Source: a virus (taxonomy: Duplodnaviria; Caudoviricetes). From it: DNA of 64,000 bases. Each line of letters opens with the position of its first letter. The first letter of the stretch is position 1. Location: the IMG/VR virus record IMGVR_UViG_3300022752_000013; one strand, written 5' to 3'. A model generated the notes under the pieces. It had not been told where the DNA came from and did no database searches. It was given only the letters and a program-made list of their open reading frames with translations. The position numbers were made by a program, and so were the translations under genes. Shown in pieces: positions 4,533 to 56,091 of this stretch.

Positions 4533-4577
4533 TTAGTAAATAATAGTATTATTATTGTCTATTAGATAAATAATAGT

Positions 4578-5324
4578 ATGAATTACAAAAAACACTACGA
4601 TATGTTAATTGAAAGAAGCCGCACTAGAACTCTTACAGGATATGTTGAAAAGCATCATATTATTCCTAAGTGCCTGGGCGGTTCTGACGATAAAGATAAC
4701 ATTGCAGTATTAACACCAGAAGAACATTTTTTAGCACATCAACTATTAGTTAAGATATATCCTAATAGTCCTCCTTTAATAAACGCCGCGGTTATAATGA
4801 CAACTCATCATACTGAATCTAGAGCAAATAATAAATTATTTGGTTGGTTGAGACGCCGAGCATCCGAATACAGAAAAGAGTGGTTGCTAGAGAATGGACA
4901 TCCTAAGGGAATGTTAGGAAAGCATCACAAACTTGAAAACATTAACAAGATTACATCAGGTATAAAACAGAAAGCAGTTGAAAAGAGAATAGAAGTATAC
5001 ACATACAATCTAGATGGGTCTTTTTATAAAAAATATGATTCCTTAATAGAATGTGCTCAGGACTTAAAAACAAATGCATCAAATGTAAAGTATACAGCAG
5101 AAGGAAACTTTGGTCATTGTAAACAAAAACAAATAAGATATGAGTTTTTTGAAAATATAGAGCCATATGTTAAACCATCTCCTCTTAAAGGTAAAAAGAA
5201 AACTGAAGAACACAAATTAAATCAAAGCAAAGCAATGAAAGGTCGTACTCGCAGTGATGAGTGGAAAGCGGCACATAGTAATGCAATGAAGAAATACCAC
5301 GCAGAGAAAACGGAAACAGTATGA
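4578..5324 (+). mobile_element. Free-standing HNH homing endonuclease with NUMOD-type DNA-binding repeats
   Basis: EKHHIIPKCLGGSDDKDNIAVLTPEEHFLAH, HPKGMLGKHH, KGKKKTEEHKLNQSKAMKG. AT-rich relative to its neighbours. Confidence 0.9.
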
Positions 5325-5518
5325 ACAGTGTAGAAAAGATCTGGGCTCGGGCCACCGGGCATCTAATGGGTGAGAGTGATCATGACCGTCCAGATGTGCC
5401 TATATTAACCTTGAGAGAAGCCCGAATAGCCTTGTTTTTCAAAACATTTTGGGTTATAATACATGTTATAACCTGCGGTTTCATTATAGCCAACACAATT
5501 AGACACTGGAACAATTAA
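5321..5518 (+). CDS. Small membrane protein
   Basis: 65 aa with a C-terminal hydrophobic helix. ATGA overlap. Confidence 0.65.
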   Translation: MNSVEKIWARATGHLMGESDHDRPDVPILTLREARIALFFKTFWVIIHVITCGFIIANTIRHWNN

Positions 5519-6139
5519 ATGTTAGAAACCTGTTGTGATATATTAGTCGATGCGTACAAACGCAATTGGATAACCAGTAGAGATGGCAACATCTCTATTC
5601 GTCATCACGACCGTGATCACTTCTATATCACACCGTCGGGTGTGCGTAAGCAGACAATGCAACCGGATCAATTCAAGAAGATCGGTATTCACGGACTGTT
5701 GTGGCAAGAAGAATATTATACTGATATCAGTGCTAATCTAAAACCCAGTGGAGAGATTCCGTTGCACTTTGGCCTACAACGAGCAATGGGGCAACACAAG
5801 GATGATGTGCGGGTAGTAGTGCATGTGCATCCGACCTATTGCATCGCGGCCATGCATGCTGGTATTGATTTGAGCACTATTAGCGATAGTTTTCCAGAAC
5901 TCAATCGTTACACACGAGTAGCACCCAATGTGGGAGATGTGGCACCTATCAGTCAAGAACTTGCTGATGCGTGTCATCGTAATCTGGGATTAGACCCAGC
6001 AGGCAATATCAAATTTGATATTGTGGGTATCAAGGGGCATGGAGTAGTGGCCATTGATGTCACACCATGGCGTGCCTATGAGCACATTGAAAGATTAGAA
6101 CACATTTGCAAGATAGTACTTGCATCAGGAAAATATTAA
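5519..6139 (+). CDS. Class II aldolase/adducin family protein
   Basis: SRDGNIS, ITPSG, KPSGEIPLH, HVHPTY and GHGVVA metal-binding motifs. Confidence 0.9.
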   Translation: MLETCCDILVDAYKRNWITSRDGNISIRHHDRDHFYITPSGVRKQTMQPDQFKKIGIHGLLWQEEYYTDISANLKPSGEIPLHFGLQRAMGQHKDDVRVVVHVHPTYCIAAMHAGIDLSTISDSFPELNRYTRVAPNVGDVAPISQELADACHRNLGLDPAGNIKFDIVGIKGHGVVAIDVTPWRAYEHIERLEHICKIVLASGKY

Positions 6140-28904: not shown

Positions 28905-29927
28905 ATGACTGCTCGAATTGGCTTTTGTTGCAAATGGCTCAATGACCCAAGCGAATGTGGGGGCATGAAAGTCAATGCAAAGGACCGTGAATTAAACGGC
29001 AGATCAACTACCATGAGGTGGCTTCGCGAACACAAAGACGAAGCGGAACAACGTCAGTGGGACATCATGAATCACAATACATCAGCGGCTGTGAAGATGA
29101 TTGAGCGTGTGGCCACATTACCCGAAGGCAGACGCATGGTACGACTGGGCAGTGAAATGCTACAAGGCTACACTGAGAAAGATTGGATCAACTGGTGGCA
29201 ACGCACTGAGATTCAAGATCACTGTGCAAAGATATTTGCACCCATAGGCGAAACTGCAAGACGACTAGGTGTGCGACTGAGTTTCCATCCTGGACAGTTT
29301 TGTGTGTTGGCCAGCGAGAGCGACGAGATTGTGGAACGCAGTATCCTCGAATTTGAATATCATGCAGACATGGCACGGTGGATGGGCTACGGCGAGACCT
29401 GGCATGATCATGGATTTAAAATTAACGTGCATTTATCGGGTAAAGGTGGTCCCGCTAAATTCCTGAAGACCTTGGGTCGTCTCACTCCAGAGGCCAGGAA
29501 CTTGATAACCATCGAGAATGACGAGATGACAAATGGATTGGACACTACTTTGGCTGTGGCTCAGCATGTGGCTCTTGTGTTGGATGTACACCACCACTGG
29601 ATCAACTCAGGCGAATATATCGAACCGCAGGACGTTCGTGCAAGTAGGGTTATTGACTCTTGGCGCGGTGTTCGTCCTGCAATGCATTTTAGTACTAGTC
29701 GCGAGGACGTTTTGGTCGATCATGATCCAGGAGTTCGACCAGACCTTGCTGAACTTCTTGCTAGAGGTTATAAAAAGCAGAAACTCCGAGCACACAGTGA
29801 CTTCTGTTGGAACCGGGCTGTGAACGCATGGGCACTGGGTTTTCGTGACCAGTTTGATATACAGGTAGAAGCCAAGGGCAAAAATCTTGCCAGTCAGCAG
29901 TTGTTTGACCAAAGTAACAATCAATGA
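28905..29927 (+). CDS. uvsE: UV damage repair endonuclease
   Basis: RIGFCCK, RLSFHPGQF, IENDE, LDVHHH and AHSD...EAKGK. Confidence 0.9.
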   Translation: MTARIGFCCKWLNDPSECGGMKVNAKDRELNGRSTTMRWLREHKDEAEQRQWDIMNHNTSAAVKMIERVATLPEGRRMVRLGSEMLQGYTEKDWINWWQRTEIQDHCAKIFAPIGETARRLGVRLSFHPGQFCVLASESDEIVERSILEFEYHADMARWMGYGETWHDHGFKINVHLSGKGGPAKFLKTLGRLTPEARNLITIENDEMTNGLDTTLAVAQHVALVLDVHHHWINSGEYIEPQDVRASRVIDSWRGVRPAMHFSTSREDVLVDHDPGVRPDLAELLARGYKKQKLRAHSDFCWNRAVNAWALGFRDQFDIQVEAKGKNLASQQLFDQSNNQ

Positions 29928-30991
29928 TAAAAATATGGTTGTCTGACAGAGCAAATTGGATAGATTATATAATCCGTACCAATGGTAACCACGTTGAAAT
30001 TGTCCAAGACCTAACACAAATAAAATCAGAATCTGATTCTAAGAATGTGGTGGTAGACATGATGCAGAGTAATAGCAGTTGTACCATTGAAGAAATACTA
30101 GAATATAACAAAATATTTGATCGAATAGTGTTGATCAATTGTGAAACACGTTCGGATCTAATGCAAATGGTACAGAGATTTGATCTAGCAAAAGTTCGAT
30201 TTATAAATCTTAGTCATTTAAATTATACTCCCCATAGTATGAAAATAACAGGAGTAGAAACTTTTTTTGGGGAAGTTCGAAAATTATATCATAACACTAA
30301 CTATGAGTCTCTTAACAATCTAAAGCCGTTGGTATCAAAAAATCTATATTTTGATGCTCTATTAGGAATGCCAAAAAAACACAGAGACTTTGTGCATCAA
30401 AAAATGCAAAATTATGGTGCCGACAAATTCTTTATACGATATCAACGTCCAGGGCAAACATTAGATGATTCTTTAAAAAATAATAATTGGCACTGGCCGG
30501 CTGGTGCCCTAATTAAATCAGAAACAGATCAAAAAAATTGGTACTCGGGTAATCAAATAAAGTTTGCAGATATGACAACCAACATATCTAACATTGTGCC
30601 TGTTGATATATATAATGACACATGCTACAGTATTGTAACAGAAAGTTTTTTTCTATCAGATTTTGTAATGCTGACAGAAAAAACTGCCAAGCCATTGATT
30701 GCCAAAAGATTATTTGTGATGTTTGCAGGTCCGGGTTATCTAGCACACCTGCATCGTTTGGGATTTCGAACGTTTGATTCAGTGATAGATGAAAGTTATG
30801 ATCTTGAACTTGATGCTGAAACAAGGTGGACTCGGGCATTTGATCAGGTAGAATACTTGTGTAATCAACCACAAGAATTAATATTGCAAAAAATACAGCC
30901 CATTTTGGAACATAACTACAATCTTTTTGTAGACCGAGACTGGAATCAAGAATACGAGCAAGCCATTGCCACTGCTGTAACTGATTTCTAA
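29924..30991 (+). CDS. Putative glycosyltransferase-like protein (TEKT family)
   Basis: YSIVTES...LTEKTAKPL...GFRTF..VIDESYD. Confidence 0.6.
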   Translation: MIKIWLSDRANWIDYIIRTNGNHVEIVQDLTQIKSESDSKNVVVDMMQSNSSCTIEEILEYNKIFDRIVLINCETRSDLMQMVQRFDLAKVRFINLSHLNYTPHSMKITGVETFFGEVRKLYHNTNYESLNNLKPLVSKNLYFDALLGMPKKHRDFVHQKMQNYGADKFFIRYQRPGQTLDDSLKNNNWHWPAGALIKSETDQKNWYSGNQIKFADMTTNISNIVPVDIYNDTCYSIVTESFFLSDFVMLTEKTAKPLIAKRLFVMFAGPGYLAHLHRLGFRTFDSVIDESYDLELDAETRWTRAFDQVEYLCNQPQELILQKIQPILEHNYNLFVDRDWNQEYEQAIATAVTDF

Positions 30992-30993
30992 TC

Positions 30994-31011
30994 TTGTAAT
31001 ATTATCGTAAT
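30994..31011 (+). promoter_or_regulatory. Pho-box-like tandem repeat 1
   Basis: TTGTAAT-ATTA-TCGTAAT, 11-bp period, about 10 nt before TATAAATA. Confidence 0.5.
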
Positions 31012-31029
31012 GTGTACATATATAAATAA

Positions 31030-31103
31030 ACTTAACCGCACACAACGATAGAGTGTGACCAGAACTCGTAACTGGTACTAAGCACCGCAAGGTGCTTTTT
31101 TTT
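31030..31103 (+). ncRNA. Candidate small RNA (two 5-bp hairpins plus terminator)
   Basis: TATAAATA at 31021; CACAC-9nt-GTGTG; ACCAG-9nt-CTGGT; AAGCACC-GCAA-GGTGCTT-Tn; no ORF. Confidence 0.55.
31080..31103 (+). terminator. Rho-independent terminator
   Basis: AAGCACC-GCAA-GGTGCTT followed by a T run. Confidence 0.9.
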
Positions 31104-31128
31104 GGGCTAGTTTTAAAATTAAACACGG

Positions 31129-31146
31129 TAGTCATAAAAATGTCAA
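31129..31146 (+). promoter_or_regulatory. Pho-box-like tandem repeat 2
   Basis: TAGTCAT-AAAA-ATGTCAA, compared with the PhoB consensus CTGTCAT-A(A/T)A(A/T)-CTGTCAY. Confidence 0.65.
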
Positions 31147-31170
31147 AAAATCCCGCTCTATAAATAAGGG

Positions 31171-31818
31171 ATGAAACCCACTATAGCCCTGTTCATTTAC
31201 GATCCCAAGTGTAGTGTACAAAGCGGCAATGGTATTATTCGAGCATTACAATCACACTACAACTTCAAGATATTCGGCAAGAATGAACTGGAAAAAGTTT
31301 TCTTTGACGATGTAGACATGATTGCAGTTCCGGGTGGACTGGGAGATGCCAGCAGTTATGAAACTGCATTCCGATACAATGCCCAACCAGTACGAGACTT
31401 TGTGGCCGATGGTGGTCGATATCTTGGCATCTGCATGGGTGCTTACTGGGCCGGAAGTCACTATCTCAACATCTTGCAAGACGTGGATGCTGAACAATAT
31501 ATCTGTCGCCCGGCAACAGACACACGCAGACCACATGCTAAGAATTTAGATGTGCATTGGAATCATGTTCCTCAAAAAATGTTCTTCTACGATGGCTGTG
31601 CCTTGGTAGGTGATACAAACAAATTCCAAACCGTGGCCACATACACGAACGGTGATGCCATGGCTATTCAACAAAACAACATTGGCTTGATCGGGTGTCA
31701 TCCTGAAAGTGAACAGTTCTGGTACGACAGTTATTCATGGATGCGTGGCCAATATCACAACGGTCGACATCATGGCATGTTGTTGGATTTTGTGGACCAA
31801 ATGTTTGTAACAAAATAG
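31171..31818 (+). CDS. Class I glutamine amidotransferase-like / BPL_N-like protein
   Basis: AVPGGLG, YLGICMGAY (nucleophile elbow) and HPE. Confidence 0.8.
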   Translation: MKPTIALFIYDPKCSVQSGNGIIRALQSHYNFKIFGKNELEKVFFDDVDMIAVPGGLGDASSYETAFRYNAQPVRDFVADGGRYLGICMGAYWAGSHYLNILQDVDAEQYICRPATDTRRPHAKNLDVHWNHVPQKMFFYDGCALVGDTNKFQTVATYTNGDAMAIQQNNIGLIGCHPESEQFWYDSYSWMRGQYHNGRHHGMLLDFVDQMFVTK

Positions 31819-31822
31819 TAAC
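31805..31822 (+). promoter_or_regulatory. Pho-box-like tandem repeat 3
   Basis: TTGTAAC-AAAA-TAGTAAC, 11 nt before TAAATA and the plcP start. Confidence 0.55.
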
Positions 31823-31843
31823 ACAATTCTGCCTAAATACTAG

Positions 31844-32638
31844 ATGCCAAAAACATACCGCAGTATTTTTATCAGTGATGTGCATCTTGGCACAAGAGAC
31901 TGCAAGGCAGAAGAACTAAACAATTTTTTAAAGCACAACTCGTGCGATACCCTGTACCTAGTGGGTGACATCATTGACGCCTGGAAGATACAACAAAACC
32001 GGTGGCGATGGAAACAAAGCCACACCAATGTGGTACGTCGTATACTGGGTCATGCCAAACGCGGCACTCGCGTGGTATTCATAGCAGGCAATCATGATGA
32101 ATTCCTGCGTCCCATGATACCATATGGTTTTAGTTTTGGACTAATAGAGATTCAAAATCAAACTGAACACATTGGTGCAGACGGCCGACATTATCTTGTG
32201 GTGCATGGAGACCTGTTTGATGGTATCACAAGACTGGCACCGTGGATAGCATTTTTAGGAGACCGAGCATATGACTTTATTCTTGCGCTTAATAGCCGAT
32301 TTAATTGGCTACTGCATCGTTTTGGTATTGGGTACTTTAGTCTTAGCCAGTACCTTAAAAAACGAGTGAAGAAGGCTGTAGACTTTATTTTCCACTTTGA
32401 AAAAAATCTAGCCAATTACTGTCGAAAGCGAGGCTACGATGGAGTGATATGTGGACACATACATCATGCAGAGATCAAAGAGATAGATGGTGTTGTATAC
32501 ATGAATGATGGTGACTGGGTTGAATCATGCACCGCTCTAGTGGAACATCATACCGGACGCTGGGAGATTGTAACATGGACACAAAAAAATGACAAAGAAG
32601 ATACTGATAATAACAGACAACTTACCGGACCAGATTAA
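31844..32638 (+). CDS. plcP: PlcP-like phospholipase C (LpxH-like metallophosphoesterase)
   Basis: YRSIFISDVHLG, LVGDIID, GNHDEFLR, HGDLFD, GVICGHIH and YMNDGDWVESCTALVEH. Confidence 0.75.
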   Translation: MPKTYRSIFISDVHLGTRDCKAEELNNFLKHNSCDTLYLVGDIIDAWKIQQNRWRWKQSHTNVVRRILGHAKRGTRVVFIAGNHDEFLRPMIPYGFSFGLIEIQNQTEHIGADGRHYLVVHGDLFDGITRLAPWIAFLGDRAYDFILALNSRFNWLLHRFGIGYFSLSQYLKKRVKKAVDFIFHFEKNLANYCRKRGYDGVICGHIHHAEIKEIDGVVYMNDGDWVESCTALVEHHTGRWEIVTWTQKNDKEDTDNNRQLTGPD

Positions 32639-33590
32639 TGGCGTGGTTACCACTTACAAGAACATTGAGGCTTGTGCGGTATTGGATGGTTATACTGTGG
32701 ATTATATTGATCCCGGGCGGTTCCGCTATGTTGATTGTCCTGGCTACAACGAAGTCAAACTTGCCATTCCGCGGGAGATGGGCAAGAAGATCGAAGAGAT
32801 TGATCCGGATCATATCCACATCGCCACAGAAGGTCCTCTTGGTCTGTGGGCTAGAAAGTATCTTTCAATATGTGGTTATAGGTATAACACCGCTTATCAT
32901 ACTAAGTTTCCTGAAGGGTTAAAGAAACTGTTTGGTATTCCTGAAGCAGTGACTTGGCCCTTGGTGCGTTGGTTTCACAAACATTCGGGCAAAGTTCTGA
33001 CCACAACCGAAACCATGGTACGTGAATTACAATCACACGGGTTTAAAGGTCAAATTGTTCCGTGGACTCGCGGTGTTGACCGTGCAATCTTTAATCCTAC
33101 TCATAGACAAAAAACCATCAGTCGATACATCTTGTGTGTGAGCCGTGTGAGCAAAGAAAAGAATCTTGAAAAGTTTCTTAAAATGGACTATCCGGGGTTC
33201 TTAAAGATCATGGTGGGTGACGGTCCCATGTTGGAAACTTATCGCCGGCAGTATCCTGAGGTTTGCTTTACAGGATTCAAAACAGGAGTGGATCTAGCCC
33301 AATACTATGCCAACGCCGAAGTATTTGTGTTTCCCAGTCAATGGGAAACATTTGGCATTGTGATGATTGAAGCCATGGCCTGTGGAACTCCTGTGGCTGC
33401 CTATCCTTGTCAAGGCCCCGAAGATGTCATTGACGAAGGTGTCACTGGCTGTATGAACACAGATTTAAAGCAGGCCGTCACTGATTGTTTGTTTTTAAAT
33501 CGACAAGGTGTGTGGCAAGGTAGTCAACGTTGGTCATGGGAACGTGCCTGGGCGATATTTAAAGACAACTTGGTGCCAGCAAAGTCATAG
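32589..33590 (+). CDS. GT4 glycosyltransferase (Agt/PimA-like glycolipid synthase)
   Basis: QINGVVTT, IHIATEGPLG, YHTKFPE, RVSKEKNL and ETFGIVMIEAMACG; overlaps the plcP-like gene. Confidence 0.85.
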   Translation: MTKKILIITDNLPDQINGVVTTYKNIEACAVLDGYTVDYIDPGRFRYVDCPGYNEVKLAIPREMGKKIEEIDPDHIHIATEGPLGLWARKYLSICGYRYNTAYHTKFPEGLKKLFGIPEAVTWPLVRWFHKHSGKVLTTTETMVRELQSHGFKGQIVPWTRGVDRAIFNPTHRQKTISRYILCVSRVSKEKNLEKFLKMDYPGFLKIMVGDGPMLETYRRQYPEVCFTGFKTGVDLAQYYANAEVFVFPSQWETFGIVMIEAMACGTPVAAYPCQGPEDVIDEGVTGCMNTDLKQAVTDCLFLNRQGVWQGSQRWSWERAWAIFKDNLVPAKS

Positions 33591-33640
33591 TTTATTGTGT
33601 AGGTGCTTTTATTTCTAGTACCGGAGTTTAAATATATGCT

Positions 33641-33781
33641 ATGAGCAGTATTTTTGAAGAACTAAACGACCTAGTATCAGAAAACCCAGTTGGTAAAGTA
33701 CTGGGCATTACTTTGTTGATTCTTGTTTTCTCTGGAGCAGTTGCTCTTGGGTTTGCTTATTGGATAACACACAGGCATTGA
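33641..33781 (+). CDS. Small membrane protein (46 aa, not in ORF track)
   Basis: TTAAATA upstream; single TM helix. Confidence 0.45.
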   Translation: MSSIFEELNDLVSENPVGKVLGITLLILVFSGAVALGFAYWITHRH

Positions 33782-33782
33782 G

Positions 33783-34559
33783 TTATCTTCCCGAATATCT
33801 TTTAGGTTCGGCTTCCAGTTGACGTTGACGTTCTGTTTTGGGTACAATGCCGGTGCCCAATTGGGGGTATTTCTCAATTCTGTCTTGTATCACCAACGCC
33901 ATCATTAATCCAACTGACAATGCAATAACCACAGCCGCCACTCCCCATATAGCATTGGCCCAAATAGCATCCATACGCCTTTTTCTACGAACCGCCCGGA
34001 TATGGTCTTGTCTCATTTGTTTAGCGATAAGAATCTTTTGTTGCTTGCCCATGATCAGCATCATGTCTTCCACTTCAGAGTGTAAAGCACCCAATTCAGG
34101 AGGTGATTGATACACCATTATCTCACGAAGTTCTGTGCCCATCTGTTCCAGTTGTTTTTTCATCAGCACACGTTGTAGGGCACGTTTGCCTAGACTAGCA
34201 TCACCTTCATAGATCTCGTGCTGACTGTGCTTTTCTTCTTCTTCAAAGATAGCCATGCACTTGTAGTAGTTGTCGTAGTATGCACCAAGATGTTCGCCAA
34301 GTTCGGTATAGATGCCCGCAGTCTCGCCGTCGCGCTTGTTTAGTTCAATTACACGATTTTTTTCTTTTACAAATTGATTACGTGCTTCTACGCTGACTGG
34401 TTTGTCAGGTGGATGTGCTTTGGCAAATTGCTCGTCGAGATCTTTGAGCACAGCCTTGACATCGCCAGCGGCACCTTTGATGTCTTTGTACAGTTGACAG
34501 CCTTTTTTCACAGCAGCCACAGCGCCATTGGCCAGGGCAAAGAGGGTTATGGGATCCAT
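33783..34559 (-). CDS. Hypothetical protein with C-terminal TM helix
   Basis: 258 aa; MDPITLFALANGAVAAVKKG. Confidence 0.75.
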   Translation of the reverse strand: MDPITLFALANGAVAAVKKGCQLYKDIKGAAGDVKAVLKDLDEQFAKAHPPDKPVSVEARNQFVKEKNRVIELNKRDGETAGIYTELGEHLGAYYDNYYKCMAIFEEEEKHSQHEIYEGDASLGKRALQRVLMKKQLEQMGTELREIMVYQSPPELGALHSEVEDMMLIMGKQQKILIAKQMRQDHIRAVRRKRRMDAIWANAIWGVAAVVIALSVGLMMALVIQDRIEKYPQLGTGIVPKTERQRQLEAEPKRYSGR

Positions 34560-35195: not shown

Positions 35196-36290
35196 TTAGC
35201 GTGGTAACCATGAACTAATGAAGTTCTGTATAGGTTTGTGACGATGCTCCATGTTCCTAATCAGTTGATAATTGTGTACTAAAATTTCTTGTGCCTGTGC
35301 GTACAGCAGTTGCGGATCAGTCTGGGCTAGAAATTCTACTGCTTGCCATGCTTTGGCCCAGCGTTTGCAATCATCAACTATTTCATCATAACTTTCGTCA
35401 ATTAAGTCTTCAAAAGTACGATAGCCCTGTGCTTGTAATTGTGCCAGTGCCCTATACCCACCAAATAGCACAAATACACGTTGACCATGAATTGCTTTTC
35501 CTGTTTTTTCAGTTAAAAATGCAGTTTGTGTAGGGTTAGTTTCAGCCACAATGCTGTACCAACTGTTTTCGTACACTGCTCGAGGAATAAAAACATTTAC
35601 ATTCATTGTTTCGTCAAAAAAATAATTGTTGCCTTTGTAGTAATAGTTGGCGCTGTTATCTTGGAGATCTGCTCGAGCAGTTGTAGTCATTTGCGCATGA
35701 TCAAGTTGATTTAATGCTGGCGATCTATAAAAATATTCTGCTCCATGACTGCCGCTTACTGACAGTAAAGTTTGATCGATAAAATTACTCTGTTGAATCC
35801 ACGCAGACAATTCACGTCTAACTGGGGTGGCTTGTCCTAGTAGTGCTTCAAACAAAAAATCACGTTGTACTGGTTGTTTTAATTCAAGATTTTGGTTGGC
35901 TGCACATACCCTATCAAACGTAGTCAGTGTAGGTGTATATACTTGTTCGTGCCTGGGCCAATATCGAGGCACACCTCCAGTTAACACAATCACGTGTGAA
36001 CATTTTGTTTGTTGTTGAAGATCACTGATAAATTTGTCGGGAGATAATTGACTGTCAATGATTTCTGGAGTGTATCCTATGACCATGTCTGCCCAACTGC
36101 AATCTTTAAAATGGTCGTTTTGAAAAATTTCTACTATGGCAATTTTTTTCCTAGAGTCATTGATAAATTTTTCAACTGGTTCCCAGACCACTTCACAGTC
36201 TGGAATCCAAGGCCATCCGTGCGACTCAGCATAATGTGCCGGAAACCCAAAATGGTAATTGTCGCACAAAATTAAGTAAGGTTTGGACAT
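35196..36290 (-). CDS. Putative glycosyltransferase-like protein (TEKT family)
   Basis: YSIVAET...FLTEKTGKAI...GYRTF..LIDESYD. Confidence 0.6.
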   Translation of the reverse strand: MSKPYLILCDNYHFGFPAHYAESHGWPWIPDCEVVWEPVEKFINDSRKKIAIVEIFQNDHFKDCSWADMVIGYTPEIIDSQLSPDKFISDLQQQTKCSHVIVLTGGVPRYWPRHEQVYTPTLTTFDRVCAANQNLELKQPVQRDFLFEALLGQATPVRRELSAWIQQSNFIDQTLLSVSGSHGAEYFYRSPALNQLDHAQMTTTARADLQDNSANYYYKGNNYFFDETMNVNVFIPRAVYENSWYSIVAETNPTQTAFLTEKTGKAIHGQRVFVLFGGYRALAQLQAQGYRTFEDLIDESYDEIVDDCKRWAKAWQAVEFLAQTDPQLLYAQAQEILVHNYQLIRNMEHRHKPIQNFISSWLPR

Positions 36291-44240: not shown

Positions 44241-44824
44241 TGCCAATTGTGCTTGAACAAACTGCCAAAGGCGAGCGCAGTTACGATATCTACAGTCGTC
44301 TATTAAAAGACCGTGTGATCATGCTGGACACAGAAGTGAGCGAACACACAGCCAGTCTGCTGGTAGCACAAATGCTGTTTTTGGAAAGTGATAACCCTGA
44401 TAAAGATATTTCCTTGTATATTAATTCGCCAGGTGGAAGTGTAACAGCGGGCATGGCCATTTATGATACCATGCAGTTTATTCGCTGTGATGTACAAACT
44501 ATCGTAATGGGACAGGCCTGCTCCATGGGGTCGTTGTTGGCCACAGCAGGAGCCGCAGGCAAACGTATGATCCTGCCCAATGCCCGACACATGATTCACC
44601 AGCCATCAGGTGGTGCTTCAGGACAAGCCACAGACATCCAAATTCAAGCACGTGAAATTCAAAAGATGAAAGAGTATCTTACCAACATCTATGTCAAACA
44701 CAACACAGCAGGCAAAGACTACGATGTACTGAGTGCAGACATGGAACGTGATTTCTTCATGAGTGCCCAAGAAGCAGTGGACTATGGTTTAGCAGATCGA
44801 ATCATCAATCAACGTGACCAATAA
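44228..44824 (+). CDS. clpP: ATP-dependent Clp protease proteolytic subunit
   Basis: [29 protein letters not shown] and MERDFFMSA. Confidence 0.95.
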
Positions 44825-46094
44825 TTTAAAAAACAATTTTTGTCCCAGCCCGTGGTTCCATATGAGAATCAACAATGCCGGGCATTATGAATACTGTCGT
44901 TGGGCGGCAACAGATCAACGCTATTCTGCTGACAATATCTACAACATAACACCAGTTGAGTTTTTTCAACAACGCATGACCAGTGTTAGACAAGAGTTAG
45001 CAACAGGTAATTCACCTCCTGGTTGTGCAAAATGCACACAGATGGAACGTCACAACAAAATCAGCGGACGACAAAAACAACTGCTCAAAGCAGGTGTTAG
45101 ACTTGAACATTTTGAAAAGACTCTAGCATCATCGCCGTGGTTGACAGAATTTGCCCAAGGTGGCGAGACAACACAAATGCCCCAGGATTGGCAAATAGAT
45201 CTTGGCAACTATTGCAACGGTGCCTGTGTATTTTGTAGCCCACATTCAAGTTCGCGCCTGGCGTCGGAGTTTAAAAAGATCGGCATCATCAATGATCTAC
45301 CACCTGCAAACTGGACCGACGATCCTGTGCGGGTTCAACAGTTGGTTGATACCTTGATCTCAAGTTCACACATACAATACTTGCATTTCATTGGTGGTGA
45401 AACACTGATAACTCCCGCATTCAAAACCATACTTGAGGCTCTGATTCAAGCCGGCTTGAATCGCACGGCCACAATTGGGTTTACTACTAATCTAGGCGTA
45501 TGGCGCGATGATGTGGTTGAACTGTTGACCCAATTCCAGGGAGTGAATCTTGGCATGAGTGTGGAGAGTTTTAAGATTGTGAATGACTATGTGCGTTATC
45601 CTGTGTGTTTGCCCACTGTGTTTGAAAGTATGGAACGTTGGTTAGAAATAAGTCAGCAACAAGATTGGTTAGTGCAGTTTAGAACCACGCCCACAGCACT
45701 CACAGTTGGTCACATGCTAGGAGTATATGAATATGCCTGGCACCACAACATTGCTGTGGAAAGTTGTAATTTTTTAAACAAGCCTGAGTGTTTGCGCCCA
45801 TCAGTTCTGCCTCTGGAATACAGACAACGCATTGTGTCCGACCTTGAAGCCTGGATAGACCAGCATCCGGTTGGCAGCGATGTGGTAGTAAACATTCGTG
45901 ATCCAAATGTAGCCCAACAACAAATTGTACAGGATCTACAGAGTTATGTGAATTATCTCAAGGCCGAATCGGATGAAAGTTGGCGTCTGCCAGACCTAGT
46001 TGAGTATTTGAAAAGACTGGAAGCCAATCGTGGCAACTCAATTGTAACTTATTTGCCTGAATATGAAGAACTTTTTACAACTGCTGGATACTGA
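44814..46094 (+). CDS. Radical SAM protein (SPASM/twitch-type N-terminal Cys region)
   Basis: [14 protein letters not shown] and TTN. Confidence 0.85.
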
Positions 46095-46311
46095 ACTATT
46101 GCTGACCGTGGTTGATAATCACAGTCAATCAACTGTGAGTTTGCATGACCACTTGGAGTTTGATGCTGATCATGTGGTAACAATTGATGGCATTGATGTG
46201 TTGCCAAGATATTGGCATTTGGCTCAGAATGGAGTGTTAACCATTTCAGAACCGTTTTATTGCTGGTATCACCGAGTGTCAGGGCAAGGTTGGTTGCTGA
46301 CCCCACACTAG
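46063..46311 (+). CDS. Hypothetical protein
   Basis: 82 aa; PFYCWYHRVSGQGWLL. Confidence 0.65.
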   Translation: MKNFLQLLDTELLLTVVDNHSQSTVSLHDHLEFDADHVVTIDGIDVLPRYWHLAQNGVLTISEPFYCWYHRVSGQGWLLTPH

Positions 46312-46366
46312 GGGTGAACTTCCCAACCTTCATGTGCCCAACGACACAGCATCAATAGATCTGCAA

Positions 46367-46486
46367 TCATTTTGCGTACATGGCCTTGGCTTCGTTTATT
46401 TTACCTGCTCTGGCCAACACGCTGGCTGCACGGGCTTCGCCCATGGATTCAAGAAAATTCCAAACTGAGTTAAAAAATTGTTTCAT
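46367..46486 (-). CDS. Small hypothetical protein (39 aa, not in ORF track)
   Basis: MKQFFNSVWNFLESMGEARAASVLARAG; ATGA coupling. Confidence 0.55.
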   Translation of the reverse strand: MKQFFNSVWNFLESMGEARAASVLARAGKINEAKAMYAK

Positions 46487-46653
46487 GCAAAATTCCTATC
46501 TGATTGTTTGTCGTACTGACGTTGCCAGTATTCTACGTCTGCTTCGCTGGCAATGCATTTGGTGCTCAAATACTGTTCCAAGCGAGATTGGTAATTTTGC
46601 TTGGGGAACATCTCAGCAAGACGTTCTATTAATTGAATAAACATTTGTGACAT
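46483..46653 (-). CDS. DUF3563-like small protein (56 aa, not in ORF track)
   Basis: GAAGGAG RBS and GTAAATA; RLEQYLS...ADVEYWQRQYD. Confidence 0.6.
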   Translation of the reverse strand: MSQMFIQLIERLAEMFPKQNYQSRLEQYLSTKCIASEADVEYWQRQYDKQSDRNFA

Positions 46654-46711
46654 TTATTTTTCTCCTTCTCAGTATTTACCACGAGTCTCTCGTGGTTTAT
46701 ACTAATATAAT

Positions 46712-46739
46712 CAAGATTAGTACTCAAGTACTAATCTTG
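46712..46739. promoter_or_regulatory. Palindromic operator within a 12-bp perfect inverted repeat
   Basis: CAAGATTAGTAC-TCAA-GTACTAATCTTG. Confidence 0.7.
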
Positions 46740-46744
46740 GGAGT

Positions 46745-46773
46745 TTGACTTGAAATACCCAAAGTGCTATAAT
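46745..46773 (+). promoter_or_regulatory. Sigma70-type early promoter
   Basis: TTGACT-N17-TATAAT. Confidence 0.9.
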
Positions 46774-46798
46774 GTACACATGATTAACCTTTTGGAGC

Positions 46799-48022
46799 AT
46801 GATTGTGCCAAAAATTTGTTGTTTATTAATGTGTCTAGCACTTGTGGCCTGTGGGGGCGGGGGTGGTGGCGGAAGCAGTGGGACTCCTGCAAGTTCTGCA
46901 TCTATTGCCGTGAAAATAATCAATCAAGGCACTGCAATACATAACAACAAGGTCAAAAACTATGCGGTGGGAGATTTAAACAACGATGGACTTGATGATG
47001 TGGTAATTGGGGGGTGGTCAGGATCTGGGACCTCGTATCTTGCAATTATGATACAAAACTCCAACGGAACGTTAACAGAGCGCACCACAGAACTATTAGG
47101 CAGCAACTCTTACCCGGGCAGTGGTCACATTTTTATTTGGGATTTTGACCACGATGGCCATGCGGATATATGGCTACCGGGTGCTGATGATTTTGTTAGT
47201 TCTTCTAACAGTCTAATGTTGTGGGGTAGCGCCGCCGGAACTTTTAGTAAACAAACCTTCAGTGAATCCATGTCTAGTGCCGGTGCCTGTTTATTTGATC
47301 TCAACAACGACGGCAACATGGACATGCTGGTTCGAGGAACCTACAATCGAAATACAAATACATACGGATATTACTTGAATCAGGGCAATAGAACTTTTAC
47401 ATTTGTTGCTGATCAATATGTAAATGGTGCCAGTGCATGTGCAGTGATACGTGATTCTACCACTGGGCATCTGGCCGCGATGCAAGGTGGCAACAGCCAA
47501 GGTGCCACTGCGGACGCCATTAGCATTGTTGATGCAAATCTTGGGTTGATCAAACTGATACCCGTTCCCAGACAAGACAATGCCATGGCCGGAATGATTG
47601 GGGTTGTGACAGCAGATGTTAATGAAGACGGACTGTTGGATTTTATAACTCTATATGAGGCCTCTAGTGCAGGATTACCAGGACGCAAAGAAGTTTGGTT
47701 AAATCAAGGATCAGACAATTTTTCCTATGCCTACGCTTTGGATACTGCCTATAACAGCAATGGAGATATTGTTAATTTTGTTTATCAAGGTATACAATAT
47801 TACTTCTTTAATGGGCCCAATGGGGATGCTACATTTTACCAACTGGCCAATGGCGTTTTAAATCTTTATCAACGTGATACTTTTTTGAGCATGGCTCGAT
47901 TGTTAGGAGCCAATCCTGGTGTAAAAGATTGGAGCGTGTTTTCTGCTACTGTATATCGTGGCAGTGAGGGGATTTATATACTTCAGGAGTTGAAATCGAT
48001 ATACTACACACAAAAACTTTAA
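46799..48022 (+). CDS. FG-GAP/VCBS-repeat lipoprotein
   Basis: LVACGGGGGGG lipobox; repeats GDLNNDGLDDV, DFDHDGHADI, DLNNDGNMDM and DVNEDGLLDF. Confidence 0.85.
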   Translation: MIVPKICCLLMCLALVACGGGGGGGSSGTPASSASIAVKIINQGTAIHNNKVKNYAVGDLNNDGLDDVVIGGWSGSGTSYLAIMIQNSNGTLTERTTELLGSNSYPGSGHIFIWDFDHDGHADIWLPGADDFVSSSNSLMLWGSAAGTFSKQTFSESMSSAGACLFDLNNDGNMDMLVRGTYNRNTNTYGYYLNQGNRTFTFVADQYVNGASACAVIRDSTTGHLAAMQGGNSQGATADAISIVDANLGLIKLIPVPRQDNAMAGMIGVVTADVNEDGLLDFITLYEASSAGLPGRKEVWLNQGSDNFSYAYALDTAYNSNGDIVNFVYQGIQYYFFNGPNGDATFYQLANGVLNLYQRDTFLSMARLLGANPGVKDWSVFSATVYRGSEGIYILQELKSIYYTQKL

Positions 48023-48032
48023 ATACACTATG

Positions 48033-48061
48033 TTGACCAGGCGTCAAACATGTGCTACAAT
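48033..48061 (+). promoter_or_regulatory. Sigma70-type early promoter
   Basis: TTGACC-N17-TACAAT. Confidence 0.8.
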
Positions 48062-48089
48062 ACATTATCGATTTTACAAAGGAGTTGAC

Positions 48090-48314
48090 ATGAACAATTG
48101 GGACAAAGGAAATTTGGATTTTATCTTGAATTCAACTGATGCGGATATGGAAGATTTCTTATCCTGGGCATCAGATGAAGATTTAAGATATGCGCTAGAA
48201 TTGATTCAAATAGCCAAAAACGAATTGGTTATACAAGAAATTGAAATTCTAGATATCAAGGCCGATGAGGATTTTTCACAAGCACAGGCAGTGCTAGAAC
48301 GATTCCGCTTGTGA
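48090..48314 (+). CDS. Small acidic hypothetical protein
   Basis: AAGGAG RBS. Confidence 0.7.
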   Translation: MNNWDKGNLDFILNSTDADMEDFLSWASDEDLRYALELIQIAKNELVIQEIEILDIKADEDFSQAQAVLERFRL

Positions 48315-49384
48315 AAATACGACTGATCGGTAAACGCAACAACTTGGGTATTGGCACCCATTTTGCAAACTTTGCAGATGCATTGAAACGTGTGAGTCAC
48401 TGGGGTGCCTGTGTTGAAGAGTTTGATTGCGAAGATCCGCAGAGACTACTGGCCGAAGCACGTATCAGTGAACCAGGCGATATCAACATCTGTTTTGTGA
48501 GCATACCCTTGCAAGATTACTTTAAAGGTACCAACATTCAATGGGTGGTGTTTGAAAGTACCCTAGTACCACCCACCGTGATGAGCACCATGCTCACCGC
48601 AGATCAAGTGTGGGTTCCTAGTGCCTGGGGTCAATCTGTGCTGATTGAAAATGGTCTGGATCCTGCCCGTTGTGAGATAGTGCCGGAAGGGGTGGATACA
48701 GATCGATATCATCCTTATGCACCCAGAGTCAACAGTCCTATCTTGACCTATTTGATCACAGGCAAATATGAATTGAGAAAAAGCATCATAGAAACTGTGT
48801 ATGCCTGGCACCAAGAATTTGGCAATGATCCTGATGTTGAACTGGTGATCAAGACTGATCATTTCTTCAACAAAGAAGCCAAGTACAATGAACTCACTCA
48901 ATGGATTGGGGAACTTGGCTTGACCAATGTGCGTGTGATGTGGGGCTCAGTACCAGCCAATGACATGGCAGATCTTTATCAACAGGCTCATGTGTTTGTG
49001 TTGCCCTCCAAAGGTGAAGGTTGGGGACTTCCGCTAATCGAAGCCGCGGCAGTGGGCCTGCCTATCATCACAACCTGGCACAGTGCTCACACAGAATTCT
49101 TGCAACACATACAATCCAGTGTGATAACAGTGGAATATGACATGGTGCCGGTTGCTTGTCAGGATTATCAGTTGTTCTACCCCACAACAGATGGCAATTG
49201 GGGCGAGTGGGCACAACCCCGAATTGACAGCATAAGGCAAGCATTAAAAACCAGTCGACAAAGTTATACATATCTACAAAAAAGAGCCAGAGAAAACAGC
49301 CACATTATACGCAACAACTTTTCCTGGGCACAGGTAGCAGACAGAGCCTTGCAGATACTGCAAAAACACGGGTTGCTAAAGTAA
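48311..49384 (+). CDS. GT4-family glycosyltransferase
   Basis: VWVPSAW, IVPEGVD and VLPSKGEGWGLPLIEAAAVG. Confidence 0.9.
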   Translation: MKIRLIGKRNNLGIGTHFANFADALKRVSHWGACVEEFDCEDPQRLLAEARISEPGDINICFVSIPLQDYFKGTNIQWVVFESTLVPPTVMSTMLTADQVWVPSAWGQSVLIENGLDPARCEIVPEGVDTDRYHPYAPRVNSPILTYLITGKYELRKSIIETVYAWHQEFGNDPDVELVIKTDHFFNKEAKYNELTQWIGELGLTNVRVMWGSVPANDMADLYQQAHVFVLPSKGEGWGLPLIEAAAVGLPIITTWHSAHTEFLQHIQSSVITVEYDMVPVACQDYQLFYPTTDGNWGEWAQPRIDSIRQALKTSRQSYTYLQKRARENSHIIRNNFSWAQVADRALQILQKHGLLK

Positions 49385-50724: not shown

Positions 50725-51156
50725 TTACTTGTAAATGTAGTTGATGGTGTCCGAATTTTCGCGATAGACTCCAGCACCATTCTTTAAATGGAAACGTCGG
50801 GCCATCTCGGTCTTGGGACTTAGTGTAACATAGGTATCAATACCAGGGAATTCTTGCTTGATCGACTTCTGTGTTTCCACAATCAACTCACGCCCAGACC
50901 CTGCGGCGTAACTCCAAATTGTATAAAATACTGCAACAGTGGCACTTCCAACCAACTCAGCCAAGTCATCCACAGCCGCCGGAATGGCCTGCAAGAATTT
51001 GACACAGGTCACTGCTTGAGTTTGGTCCCCATCCTTCAACATGTAGATTCGACTGTTGGAGTTTATCCGTTTGGTCATGGGGATTTCAGGACGCACAGGG
51101 TCATCCTTGATCAGGGTTTCTAAGTCTTCTGTAATGGTGGTGATGGTGTGTAACAT
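50725..51156 (-). CDS. Conserved hypothetical protein (GNAT-like fold possible)
   Basis: DDPVRP, FYTIWSY..GSGR and VTLSP...RFHLKNGA. Confidence 0.7.
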   Translation of the reverse strand: MLHTITTITEDLETLIKDDPVRPEIPMTKRINSNSRIYMLKDGDQTQAVTCVKFLQAIPAAVDDLAELVGSATVAVFYTIWSYAAGSGRELIVETQKSIKQEFPGIDTYVTLSPKTEMARRFHLKNGAGVYRENSDTINYIYK

Positions 51157-51224
51157 AATCTACGCCGTTAATGTTTATGTAAAGGTATTTATCACAACCT
51201 TTGTTACATTAAAATTACAGAGTG

Positions 51225-54632: not shown

Positions 54633-55010
54633 ATGAACTTAGAAACTATCATAGCCGCCATGTTTACCGGAGTAGGATTTGGTGTGATTGTGTTCTTGCT
54701 ATTTGTTTGGATAATATCTCGACGAATCCAGTTTCGGATTGATTCAGAAATATCGGGTGTGATAGAAAAATTAGCCCAGGATCGACTGATAGCACTCACG
54801 GTGGAAATTGACAACAATCAGTACTTCTGCTACAATGCACTTACCAAAGACTTTGTATGCCAAGGCTACAGTTTGAAAGAAATCATAGAACGATTTCGTC
54901 TGCGTTATCCCGACAAGGCCGCCGCAATATATGACGGCGATGAAACAGCAGTACAGACACTCAAATCTCAAATGGATCAACTTGATAAATCAGACACAGT
55001 GCAATCTTAA
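54633..55010 (+). CDS. Membrane-anchored hypothetical protein
   Basis: N-terminal TM helix; GTAAATA upstream. Confidence 0.7.
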   Translation: MNLETIIAAMFTGVGFGVIVFLLFVWIISRRIQFRIDSEISGVIEKLAQDRLIALTVEIDNNQYFCYNALTKDFVCQGYSLKEIIERFRLRYPDKAAAIYDGDETAVQTLKSQMDQLDKSDTVQS

Positions 55011-56091
55011 AGGCACCCAAAAATTATTTTTTATCCAGTTAAATCAGGCTGCCTCTTGTTGTAGAAGTAATCTTGAATCGTTGCCGGCTGACATGTCAGA
55101 CTTGCTTGAGCATTGGCAACTGGAACATGATCAATTGACACAAGGCATTGCCGTTCAAAATTGTTCTGTTTGTTGGAAACAACAGGCCCAAGGTCATACA
55201 TCTTGGAGACAACTACACGGTCACCAGAATAACAACACCGTTGAACTGTGGTTGAACAATTCCTGCAATCAAATGTGTAGTTATTGTAGTCCAAAATTCT
55301 CTAGCACTTGGCAACAGAATATCATTGACCACGGACCTTTTGAAAATATCAGTAGCACAGCCAAATCCAATCTTGACCTGCCACCAATAGCAATAGATCA
55401 GCAACAGTGGATAGAAAAAATAGGTGAATATTTACAATCTCAACCTCCAGAATCAGTTGATCTAAAGTTGTTGGGCGGTGAGCCCTTGATGCAGATTCGA
55501 AATTTACAAAAATTAATTGATCTTTCTGGTAATAGTATAAATCAACTGATGATAAACACCAATCTCAATCCTCCCAACAATCGATTCCTGCATTGGTTAT
55601 TGGACACAGTGCCTGCTTACAAACTCAAATTTGAGATAAGTCTAGACGCCAGTCCCAAATATAATCATGTGCCAAGAGCAGGATTTGATCCAGAACGATT
55701 CCATACCAATTTAGAATTGCTGATTGAAAAAAATATAAATTTTGGTTTTTTGTCGGTTATGAGTGTGCTGAGTATTTTTGACTTGCCCGACTTTACGAAA
55801 TGGTCTCAACCATATCAAGTGGCATTTAACAAAATCAACAATCCGGATTGCCTGGACCCAATTTGGTTACCAATGGAAATCTTAGACCAAATAAACAACC
55901 AGTTTGAGCAAGAACCGCCAATGATTTTCCAAGAATTATACAACAAGCCGCAATCTTTGGTTGACCTAAAATTGTTTGAGCAGTATAATTACTTGTGTCA
56001 GTATTTTTCTAGAACTGGCATAAACATCAAACAAATCGATAATCTCTTGTTCCAACAATATTGGACTTGGCTAGAAGAAAGACAAAAATGA
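54931..56091 (+). CDS. Radical SAM protein (true start probably near 54982)
   Basis: CNQMCSYC, LGGEP and NTN. Confidence 0.85.
   Translation: MTAMKQQYRHSNLKWINLINQTQCNLKGTQKLFFIQLNQAASCCRSNLESLPADMSDLLEHWQLEHDQLTQGIAVQNCSVCWKQQAQGHTSWRQLHGHQNNNTVELWLNNSCNQMCSYCSPKFSSTWQQNIIDHGPFENISSTAKSNLDLPPIAIDQQQWIEKIGEYLQSQPPESVDLKLLGGEPLMQIRNLQKLIDLSGNSINQLMINTNLNPPNNRFLHWLLDTVPAYKLKFEISLDASPKYNHVPRAGFDPERFHTNLELLIEKNINFGFLSVMSVLSIFDLPDFTKWSQPYQVAFNKINNPDCLDPIWLPMEILDQINNQFEQEPPMIFQELYNKPQSLVDLKLFEQYNYLCQYFSRTGINIKQIDNLLFQQYWTWLEERQK

Follow-up and report, generated by a model that had tools for sequence, protein, structure and literature searches.

Introduction

Shortage of phosphorus often sets the limit to phage production in lakes and oceans, and the phage genome is very rich in this element. 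T4-like cyanophages and pelagiphages carry pstS, phoA and phoH, the first two of which are induced by way of the host PhoBR system; the known viral answers to phosphorus shortage concern uptake (pstS, phoA) or have an unclear role (phoH). Bacteria possess in addition the PlcP-Agt pathway, which has been described in Sinorhizobium meliloti (SMc00171), Phaeobacter (MED193_17359), SAR11 HTCC7211 (PB7211_983/960) and Pseudomonas aeruginosa (PA3219/PA3218). Here we analyse a 64,000-nucleotide (nt) stretch of the IMG/VR virus record IMGVR_UViG_3300022752_000013, hereafter the window, in which a cassette on the plus strand at 31844-33590 encodes predicted counterparts of both enzymes of that pathway. 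A sequence-only reading of the window had taken the two overlapping genes for a phage-borne PlcP-type phospholipase C and an Agt-type glycosyltransferase; all computational checks agree with this core reading, the chemistry being predicted. The cassette consists of two genes:

31844-32638, plus strand: plcP, 264 amino acids, a PlcP-family metallophosphoesterase with the LpxH fold, predicted to act as a phospholipase C on glycerophospholipids
32589-33590, plus strand: agt-like GT4 gene, 333 amino acids, a predicted diacylglycerol glycosyltransferase, overlapping plcP by 50 nt

The succession of plcP and agt corresponds to the published type-2 arrangement (PMC4796936), and the Agt products, monoglucosyl-diacylglycerol (MGDG) and glucuronosyl-diacylglycerol (GADG), have been reported (PMC4796936; PMC8528852). 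Both the PlcP-Agt pathway in bacteria and Pho-regulon genes in phages are already known. A phage-borne PlcP-Agt module, which would tap the host phospholipids instead, is apparently unreported: none is described in the searchable literature, most subscription journals lying outside its coverage.

The phage pair resembles the bacterial pathway in both protein families, in gene order, in the close coupling or overlap of the two genes, and in an upstream repeat with a period of 11 base pairs (bp). In contrast to the bacterial pathway, it resides in large T4-like lake phages, forms a tight clade of its own, has its glycosyltransferase swapped for a small GT2 in many genomes, and lies behind a promoter made of Pho-box-like repeats and a TAAATA 4 nt from the start codon, without a Shine-Dalgarno sequence. 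With phage pstS, phoA and phoH it shares a host Pho-regulon function in T4-like phages of nutrient-poor waters, and with pstS more specifically a neighbourhood and a promoter type, the cassette lying beside pstS in relatives. Unlike pstS and phoA, it would draw on the host membrane, an internal phosphorus store, and would need a second enzyme for the bilayer.

Two cultured T4-like phages encode homologs of the first gene, in both cases annotated as UDP-2,3-diacylglucosamine hydrolase or diphosphatase, a lipid A enzyme: Mosig_00120 of Pelagibacter phage Mosig EXVC030M (48% identical) and a protein of Synechococcus phage S-SRM01 (37% identical, on a very long branch). Unlike in the window, no glycosyltransferase follows the homolog in either phage, and both fall outside the lake-phage clade. 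Among the related loci that we compared with the window, which carry labels such as L007 and L017, Mosig is L001; there (3894-5729) the homolog is divergently oriented from pstS and has TTAACA-type repeats with an 11-bp period and an ATAAATA 5 nt before its ATG.

Results

The first gene encodes a PlcP-family enzyme

All motifs that the sequence-only reading had quoted for the open reading frame (ORF) at 31844-32638 (YRSIFISDVHLG, GNHDEFLR, HGDLFD, GHIH and NDGDWVESCTA) are present exactly in the translation, and the 264-residue product matches the Pfam Metallophos (calcineurin-like phosphoesterase) family. It scores far below the cut-offs of the two LpxH equivalog models of NCBIfam, with 47.5 against 134 bits for NF003743 and 35.2 against 190.35 bits for TIGR01854. 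A sequence search of the PDB matched LpxH chains weakly (E about 1e-5), and in the HMMER alignment the product has GNHD opposite the GNRD of LpxH. In the GNRD of LpxH the metal-binding asparagine is followed by an arginine, to which the LpxH structures assign a role. A library-wide HMMER search returned 957 clusters at E <1e-30 with 40-54% identity, and in a 31-sequence family alignment D12, H14, D42, N83, H84, D85, H121, H205 and H207 are invariant.

Searching one genome per species yielded 80 bacterial loci with orthologs at 50-58% identity, which belong to the Alpha-, Beta- and Gammaproteobacteria, with a few further phyla also represented; the nearest cellular homolog belongs to a metagenome-assembled genome of an unclassified pseudomonadotal bacterium (L087). 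Five of these genomes each also encode, besides the plcP ortholog, a separate LpxH that exceeds the cut-off, scoring 220-338 bits against the LpxH models as compared with 40-57 bits for the ortholog. The window protein is 21-26% identical to the LpxH of these five genomes and 51-53% identical to their second paralog. As anchors we used two loci drawn from a plasmid collection that are actually chromosomal pieces of P. aeruginosa and S. meliloti. The window protein is 58% identical (E 5e-93) to the P. aeruginosa PlcP at a PA3219/PA3218-type locus, where the gene overlaps a glycosyltransferase gene and faces an adenylate cyclase gene, and 49% identical (E 1e-84) to the S. meliloti PlcP at the SMc00171 position, where the gene adjoins those of a LuxR-type regulator and an acyl-homoserine lactone synthase. 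Validated PlcPs share just 46-47% identity among themselves (PMC8528852).

In a careful maximum-likelihood tree the viral PlcPs form one clade (support 100/100) that joins Mosig and one uncultured pseudomonadotal sequence (99/92), and this group is sister (97/98) to a gammaproteobacterial clade containing the P. aeruginosa PlcP. The S. meliloti PlcP lies outside this grouping, so that the viral clade is bracketed by two validated PlcPs. The LpxH sequences make up a clade of their own (100/100), set off by a very long branch: measured from the window protein, the two PlcPs are at path lengths of 2.65 and 3.07 and LpxH at 13.7-16.9 substitutions per site. An approximately unbiased (AU) test in which the window protein was forced into LpxH gave p = 0.164, a value that we disregard since the constraint was badly posed, tearing one tip from its 97%-identical sister in a two-tree test. 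We assign the protein to PlcP on its identities, its scores relative to the cut-offs and its position in the tree. The phylogenetic comparison thus bears out the preference for PlcP over LpxH expressed from sequence alone, with the window protein nested between two validated PlcPs and far from the LpxH paralogs.

The AlphaFold2 model of the protein (predicted local distance difference test score 87.5) adopts the LpxH fold, residues 127-195 forming a helical lid, and LpxH accounts for all of its best 25 PDB matches (18-22% identity). The likeness to LpxH comprises the calcineurin-like core, the helical lid and the metal-ligand motifs; the differences are the 18-26% identity, the scores below the cut-offs, the separate paralog in bacteria, and GNHD in place of GNRD. 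The fold is common to PlcP and LpxH, but the family differs. We infer that the window enzyme is a PlcP-type phospholipase C with predicted activity on lipids of the phosphatidylethanolamine (PE) and phosphatidylglycerol (PG) type.

The overlapping gene encodes an Agt-like glycosyltransferase

The 333-residue product of the second gene, assigned to GT4 in the sequence-only reading, contains both halves of a GT4 enzyme, Glyco_transf_4 and Glycos_transf_1, and an E-x7-E motif at about residues 253-261. The overlap with plcP spans 50 nt (32589-32638), and overlaps of 47-50 nt also occur in related phage contigs. We place the start codon at the ATG at 32589 because the alignment with Agt1 begins at residue 4 of the ORF. 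The protein is 38% identical over 330 residues (E 8e-76) to the protein of the P. aeruginosa Agt1 locus, and P. aeruginosa Agt1 expressed in Escherichia coli produces MGDG (PMC8528852). In about 50 of the 80 bacterial plcP loci an orthologous GT4 gene lies directly downstream, its product being 38-45% identical to that of the window, and in the tree the viral GT4s group as one clade. None of the NCBIfam equivalogs reaches its cut-off with the window GT4. The earlier assignment to the Agt type has thus gained a full-length homology both to a validated Agt1 and to the plcP-linked GT4s of bacteria. The enzyme is predicted to convert diacylglycerol, with the help of a UDP-sugar, to MGDG and/or GADG.

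The gene pair recurs in large lake phages under purifying selection

IMG/VR holds 218 relatives, of which the best 80 loci were fetched and compared. In these, identity to the window is 80-97% for PlcP and 55-95% for GT4, and the contigs reach 524 kilobases (kb). The gene after plcP encodes a glycosyltransferase, GT4 or GT2, in nearly all of these best 80 of 218 loci; in the few viral loci without a detected partner the sequence ends shortly after plcP. Ratios of nonsynonymous to synonymous substitution rates (dN/dS) are 0.05-0.09 for plcP and 0.06-0.14 for GT4, indicating strong purifying selection; GT4 values of 0.4-0.5 against L015 and L017 were left unused, being an artefact of ungapped comparison across indels. 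The recurrence of the pair together with these low ratios places the pairing far beyond chance.

About half of the related phage contigs have, in place of the GT4 gene, a GT2 gene whose product has 239 residues and a weak GT21 signature (L003:8907-9626 and about 40 other viral loci). Carriers of GT4 and of GT2 are intermingled in the plcP tree; its 20 viral tips require at least 8 changes of partner, which implies repeated exchange of the cassette. No GT2 of this kind adjoins plcP in the 80 bacterial loci. The processive diacylglycerol glycosyltransferase Pgt belongs to GT21 (PMC4796936).

That the window is viral follows from its IMG/VR relatives, from the Gp23 capsid and phoH genes in the carrier records, and from its homology to Mosig. 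A Gp23-type capsid gene is present in three large records, and phoH in five of five carriers examined. One protein of the window's structural region finds its best match in Pelagibacter phage Mosig, followed by jumbo myoviruses; PHROG scans of ten large ORFs of unknown function in the window found no structural hallmark. A 90-kb contig is the nearest relative of the window; its rated completeness of 26% points to a genome of roughly 350 kb. Lake and freshwater metagenomes of many studies contain near-identical DNA, and four lake metatranscriptome libraries contain contigs over parts of both genes, some of them identical, which we take as a record of presence only.

The cassette shares a Pho-box-like promoter with pstS

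The Pho-box-like boxes were recognised only by comparing upstream regions across phages with differing upstream genes. This comparison brings out two or three direct 7-nt TGTAA(C/T)A units with 4-nt spacers (an 11-bp period), followed after about 10 nt, or one more helical turn, by TAAATA and, a few bases on, by the ATG. Three such promoters (at 30995, 31129 and 31806) fall within 850 nt of the window, and a fourth copy lies at a distance:

30995-31028, plus strand: Pho-box-like promoter 1, with a 7-4-7 TGTAAT-type repeat (30995-31012), 8 nt, and TATAAATA (31021-31028), before a conserved structured RNA element
31129-31166, plus strand: Pho-box-like promoter 2, with TGTCA-type units (31129-31146), 12 nt, and TATAAATA (31159-31166), 4 nt before the ATG of an ORF with a BPL_N domain
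31806-31839, plus strand: Pho-box-like promoter 3, with a 7-4-7 TGTAAC-type repeat (31806-31823), 10 nt, and TAAATA (31834-31839), 4 nt before the ATG of plcP
51186-51219, minus strand: a fourth repeat-plus-TAAATA copy, the only one in the window outside the plcP island

The arrangement of promoter 1 recurs in L007, L011 and L017, and at the position of promoter 2 L007 and L017 have a box with at most 2 mismatches from CTGTCAT-N4-CTGTCAT. Promoter 3 is the sole copy in the window with no more than one mismatch in the pattern scan, and no Shine-Dalgarno sequence precedes plcP. The fourth copy precedes the ORF at 50725-51156 (minus strand), which encodes a 143-residue GNAT-like protein with a weak match to the C-terminal domain of malonyl-CoA decarboxylase, from a family that is almost solely viral.

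Among 70 dereplicated viral loci the repeat stands before plcP in 26, a density of 6.5 per kb compared with 0.036 per kb elsewhere (about 180-fold). Another 17 copies occur no farther than 6 kb from plcP; in the fetched loci they all lie on the plcP strand. Seven of these 17 precede PstS genes, whose products of about 335 residues have the PstS N-terminal signature and score 125-135 bits with PBP_like_2; other copies precede an ORF resembling class-I glutamine amidotransferases (GATase-like), one ORF of no known role, and the structured RNA. Canonical TGTCA(T/C) units are mixed with TGTAA(T/C) units inside single arrays, and a near-canonical Pho box precedes the GATase-like BPL_N gene in close relatives. 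P. aeruginosa plcP, taken as a positive control, is preceded by three to four CTGTCAC-type units, and canonical Pho boxes lie upstream of many further bacterial plcP orthologs. A scan of the whole window for the canonical Pho box CTGTCAT-N4-CTGTCAT with up to 3 mismatches gave 3 matches where 8.5 were expected, none of them near the cassette.

The cassette appears to be co-regulated with pstS through this common promoter type, to judge from the upstream sequences. The phosphate context proposed from sequence alone is thereby strengthened, since plcP and pstS have the same Pho-box-like promoter in related phages. As to the accompanying claim of a strategy distinct from pstS and phoH, the cassette would act on a membrane reservoir rather than on uptake, but it is not separate, lying beside pstS in relatives and apparently being regulated with it.

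We also note that TAAATA stands 4-13 nt upstream of about nine to ten ORFs, for example those at 4578, 8420, 13629, 19171, 23259-24062 (minus strand), 31171, 31844, 35196-36290 (minus strand), 48030 and 33641. These genes are without a Shine-Dalgarno sequence, and the remaining genes have TATAAT promoters and clear AGGAG sites. This suggests that the TAAATA genes are transcribed from a late-type promoter into messages with a very short leader or none. We claim no late-promoter class from counts, since the enrichment of TATAAATA in the window is not significant (5 matches against 2.3 expected, equalled in 9 of 100 shuffles).

Discussion

We suggest that the cassette is a phage copy of bacterial PlcP-Agt lipid renovation tied to phosphate stress, a reading to which we would give a probability of about 0.72. 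PlcP would cleave the phosphodiester of inner-membrane glycerophospholipids such as PE and PG, yielding diacylglycerol and a phospho-alcohol head group. With a UDP-sugar, the GT4 would turn the diacylglycerol into monoglucosyl- and/or glucuronosyl-diacylglycerol and so keep the bilayer intact, while host phosphatases or central metabolism would move the head-group phosphorus into the nucleotide pool for the phage genome of about 350 kb. Expression of the cassette would be tied to phosphate stress through the Pho-box-like repeat 10 nt upstream of TAAATA. The substrates and products, a dependence on PhoB and a benefit to phage replication are predictions of this reading. The cassette probably belongs to a phage-borne phosphate-stress regulon together with pstS, the GATase-like gene and the small structured RNA.

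More tentatively, jumbo T4-like lake phages could carry a self-contained regulon responsive to host PhoB, comprising pstS, the plcP-glycosyltransferase pair, the GATase-like gene and the structured RNA, all behind one hybrid Pho-box/TAAATA promoter, and the plcP message would have little or no leader; the phage would in this way sense host phosphate status and dismantle the membrane as a phosphorus reserve. We hold this larger picture to be possible, with the odds somewhat against it in its entirety.

Several points weigh against lipid renovation for phosphorus as we propose it. PlcP yields a phospho-alcohol and not orthophosphate, so that further host enzymes are needed. The repeat lies upstream of plcP in just 26 of the 70 viral loci, the three boxes of the window are all more than 3 mismatches from the CTGTCAT consensus, and about nine other genes of the window likewise have a TAAATA, resembling T4-type late promoters, 4-13 nt ahead of their start codon. 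PhoB works through sigma-70, and its control of a TAAATA promoter is therefore mechanistically uncertain. We know of no PlcP structure, and for this reason the AlphaFold2 model cannot tell whether the pocket suits a phospholipid or lipid X. The anchor loci were identified by gene order, and we take them to be PA3219/PA3218 in P. aeruginosa and SMc00171 in S. meliloti. Finally, the metatranscriptome contigs do not exclude carry-over of DNA.

Both enzymes could be as described and yet serve a purpose other than phosphorus economy, namely envelope remodelling that blocks superinfection, alters sensitivity to grazers or antimicrobials, or acts in lysis or assembly, the promoter then being of a phage middle or late class read by a phage factor. 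TAAATA near start codons is indeed common among the genes of the window and resembles the T4-type late promoter, the repeat units are mostly TGTAAY and not TGTCAY, and the same promoter type stands before the GNAT-like gene, the GATase-like gene and one further ORF, all without a known phosphate role. Published links between lipid remodelling and altered phage attachment and grazing (PMC9938194, PMC9457565) favour such a purpose as well. Yet this promoter type is rare in the 64 kb and strongly tied to plcP and to pstS, a classical PhoB target; canonical and variant units replace one another inside a single array, and Pho boxes close to the consensus occur in relatives. The Mosig homolog, moreover, lies back to back with pstS, and phoH is present in all five carriers examined. 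On this evidence we regard an envelope function divorced from phosphorus as unlikely.

T4-like phages commonly encode glycosyltransferases for DNA modification, and one could accordingly see in the phosphoesterase a phospholipase of host takeover or lysis and in the GT4 an unrelated enzyme that modifies phage DNA or virion proteins, the two being adjacent through genome packing. The swapping of GT4 for GT2 (at least 8 switches in 20 viral tips) and the lack of a counterpart of this GT2 beside plcP in the 80 bacterial loci would suit such a view. We consider it very unlikely, as the GT4 is orthologous to the plcP-linked Agt of bacteria and 38% identical to the validated Agt1, and as viral plcP is regularly followed by a glycosyltransferase gene, often in translational overlap, which argues for selection on the pair; the GT2 itself has a GT21-type signature, that of the family of Pgt (PMC4796936). 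An even smaller chance attaches to the first gene being a true LpxH, with the glycosyltransferase acting on lipopolysaccharide (LPS) and the phage altering lipid A or LPS synthesis. In its favour, every one of the closest solved structures is an LpxH, public annotations of the homologs read LpxH, and virome papers place lpxH under LPS biosynthesis (PMC10653327, PMC9611531). Against this stand the scores far under the equivalog cut-offs, the 18-26% identity to LpxH, the separate LpxH retained by ortholog-bearing bacteria, the long-branch clade that LpxH forms by itself (100/100), GNHD in place of GNRD, and the 58% and 49% identity to two validated PlcPs. This explanation is already close to refuted.

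If phosphorus-linked lipid renovation is indeed what the cassette performs, several consequences would follow. By a rough estimate, the phospholipid phosphorus of a small freshwater cell equals a few to several genome copies of a phage of about 350 kb, and the glycolipid product would keep the host membrane sealed as this store is drawn down. The shifts from phospholipid to glycolipid measured in waters poor in phosphorus would have a direct cause in virus infection. A systematic misannotation would also be corrected, viral "lpxH" being counted as an LPS auxiliary gene in virome surveys. The locus would further offer a compact promoter and regulon model for large phages that read the nutrient status of their host, and part of the proposal is testable in an existing host-phage system, since the cultured Pelagibacter phage Mosig carries a homolog.

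Neighbouring genes and further features of the window

Around the cassette the window contains the following features, for which neighbour counts refer to 73 dereplicated viral loci:

25705-26943: ORF of the nucleotide-sugar dehydrogenase family, 136 bits against a family cut-off of 189.8
28905-29927, plus strand: UvdE-type UV damage endonuclease, 102 bits, kept together with the dehydrogenase in close relatives
31034-31103, plus strand: conserved structured RNA element, with stem P1 (31039-31043/31053-31057), stem P2 (31059-31062/31072-31075) and a terminator hairpin with T-run (31082-31103)
31171-31818, plus strand: BPL_N ORF, 215 amino acids, class-I glutamine-amidotransferase-like; Pfam BPL_N at 35 bits, above the cut-off
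33641-33781, plus strand: ORF of 46 amino acids with a hydrophobic segment, directly after GT4, with TAAATA at 33629-33634, 6 nt before the ATG

The structured RNA occurs in 16-18 distinct copies in related phage loci (L007:5190-5278, L013 near 1887, L037 near 5926, L064 near 5935 and 7922, L075 near 8829, and others). P1 is a stem of 4-6 bp, found in 9 distinct complementary versions, with the conserved loop AA(N)GAT(A/T)G(A/G). P2 is a 4-bp stem, CTGG/CCAG, which shows a double compensatory swap to CCAG/CTGG in the window and carries a conserved AACTCGTAA loop. The element is usually followed by a terminator and is sited after pstS, after GT4, or alone behind a Pho-box-like promoter; an Rfam scan of 30900-33900 gave no match. 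It could be a small RNA, a 3'-untranslated-region element or a cassette-junction site, and might combine an RNA function with that of a junction at which cassettes are shuffled between phage genomes.

In 31 of the 73 loci a BPL_N homolog is present no more than 6 kb from plcP, and the atlas clusters to which this protein belongs are mostly viral. The 46-residue ORF downstream of GT4 may be a further member of the unit; a 46-residue gene was called at a similar downstream position in L006. In several phages the place directly after the glycosyltransferase gene is taken by another family of ORFs, which begin with MRFEDLA, encode 214-324 residues and have no Pfam match (L029:7497-8471, L066:4309-4953, L079:7535-8179, L030 and L076); they stand behind a Pho-box-like promoter and a short hairpin.

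The dehydrogenase had been put forward, from sequence alone, as a UDP-glucose dehydrogenase (UGDH) that could supply UDP-glucuronate to the glycosyltransferase. This link finds no support here: the gene accompanies plcP in 8 of the 73 loci, all from one lineage with UGDH-to-UvdE synteny, and its product scores below the family cut-off.

Farther along the plus strand, at 44814-49384 and 54931-56091, the window encodes two radical SAM proteins and an FG-GAP repeat protein. A second GT4, marked by a "conflict-system" GT4 signature, is encoded there as well, and all of these genes might form a separate cluster for glycan or peptide modification.

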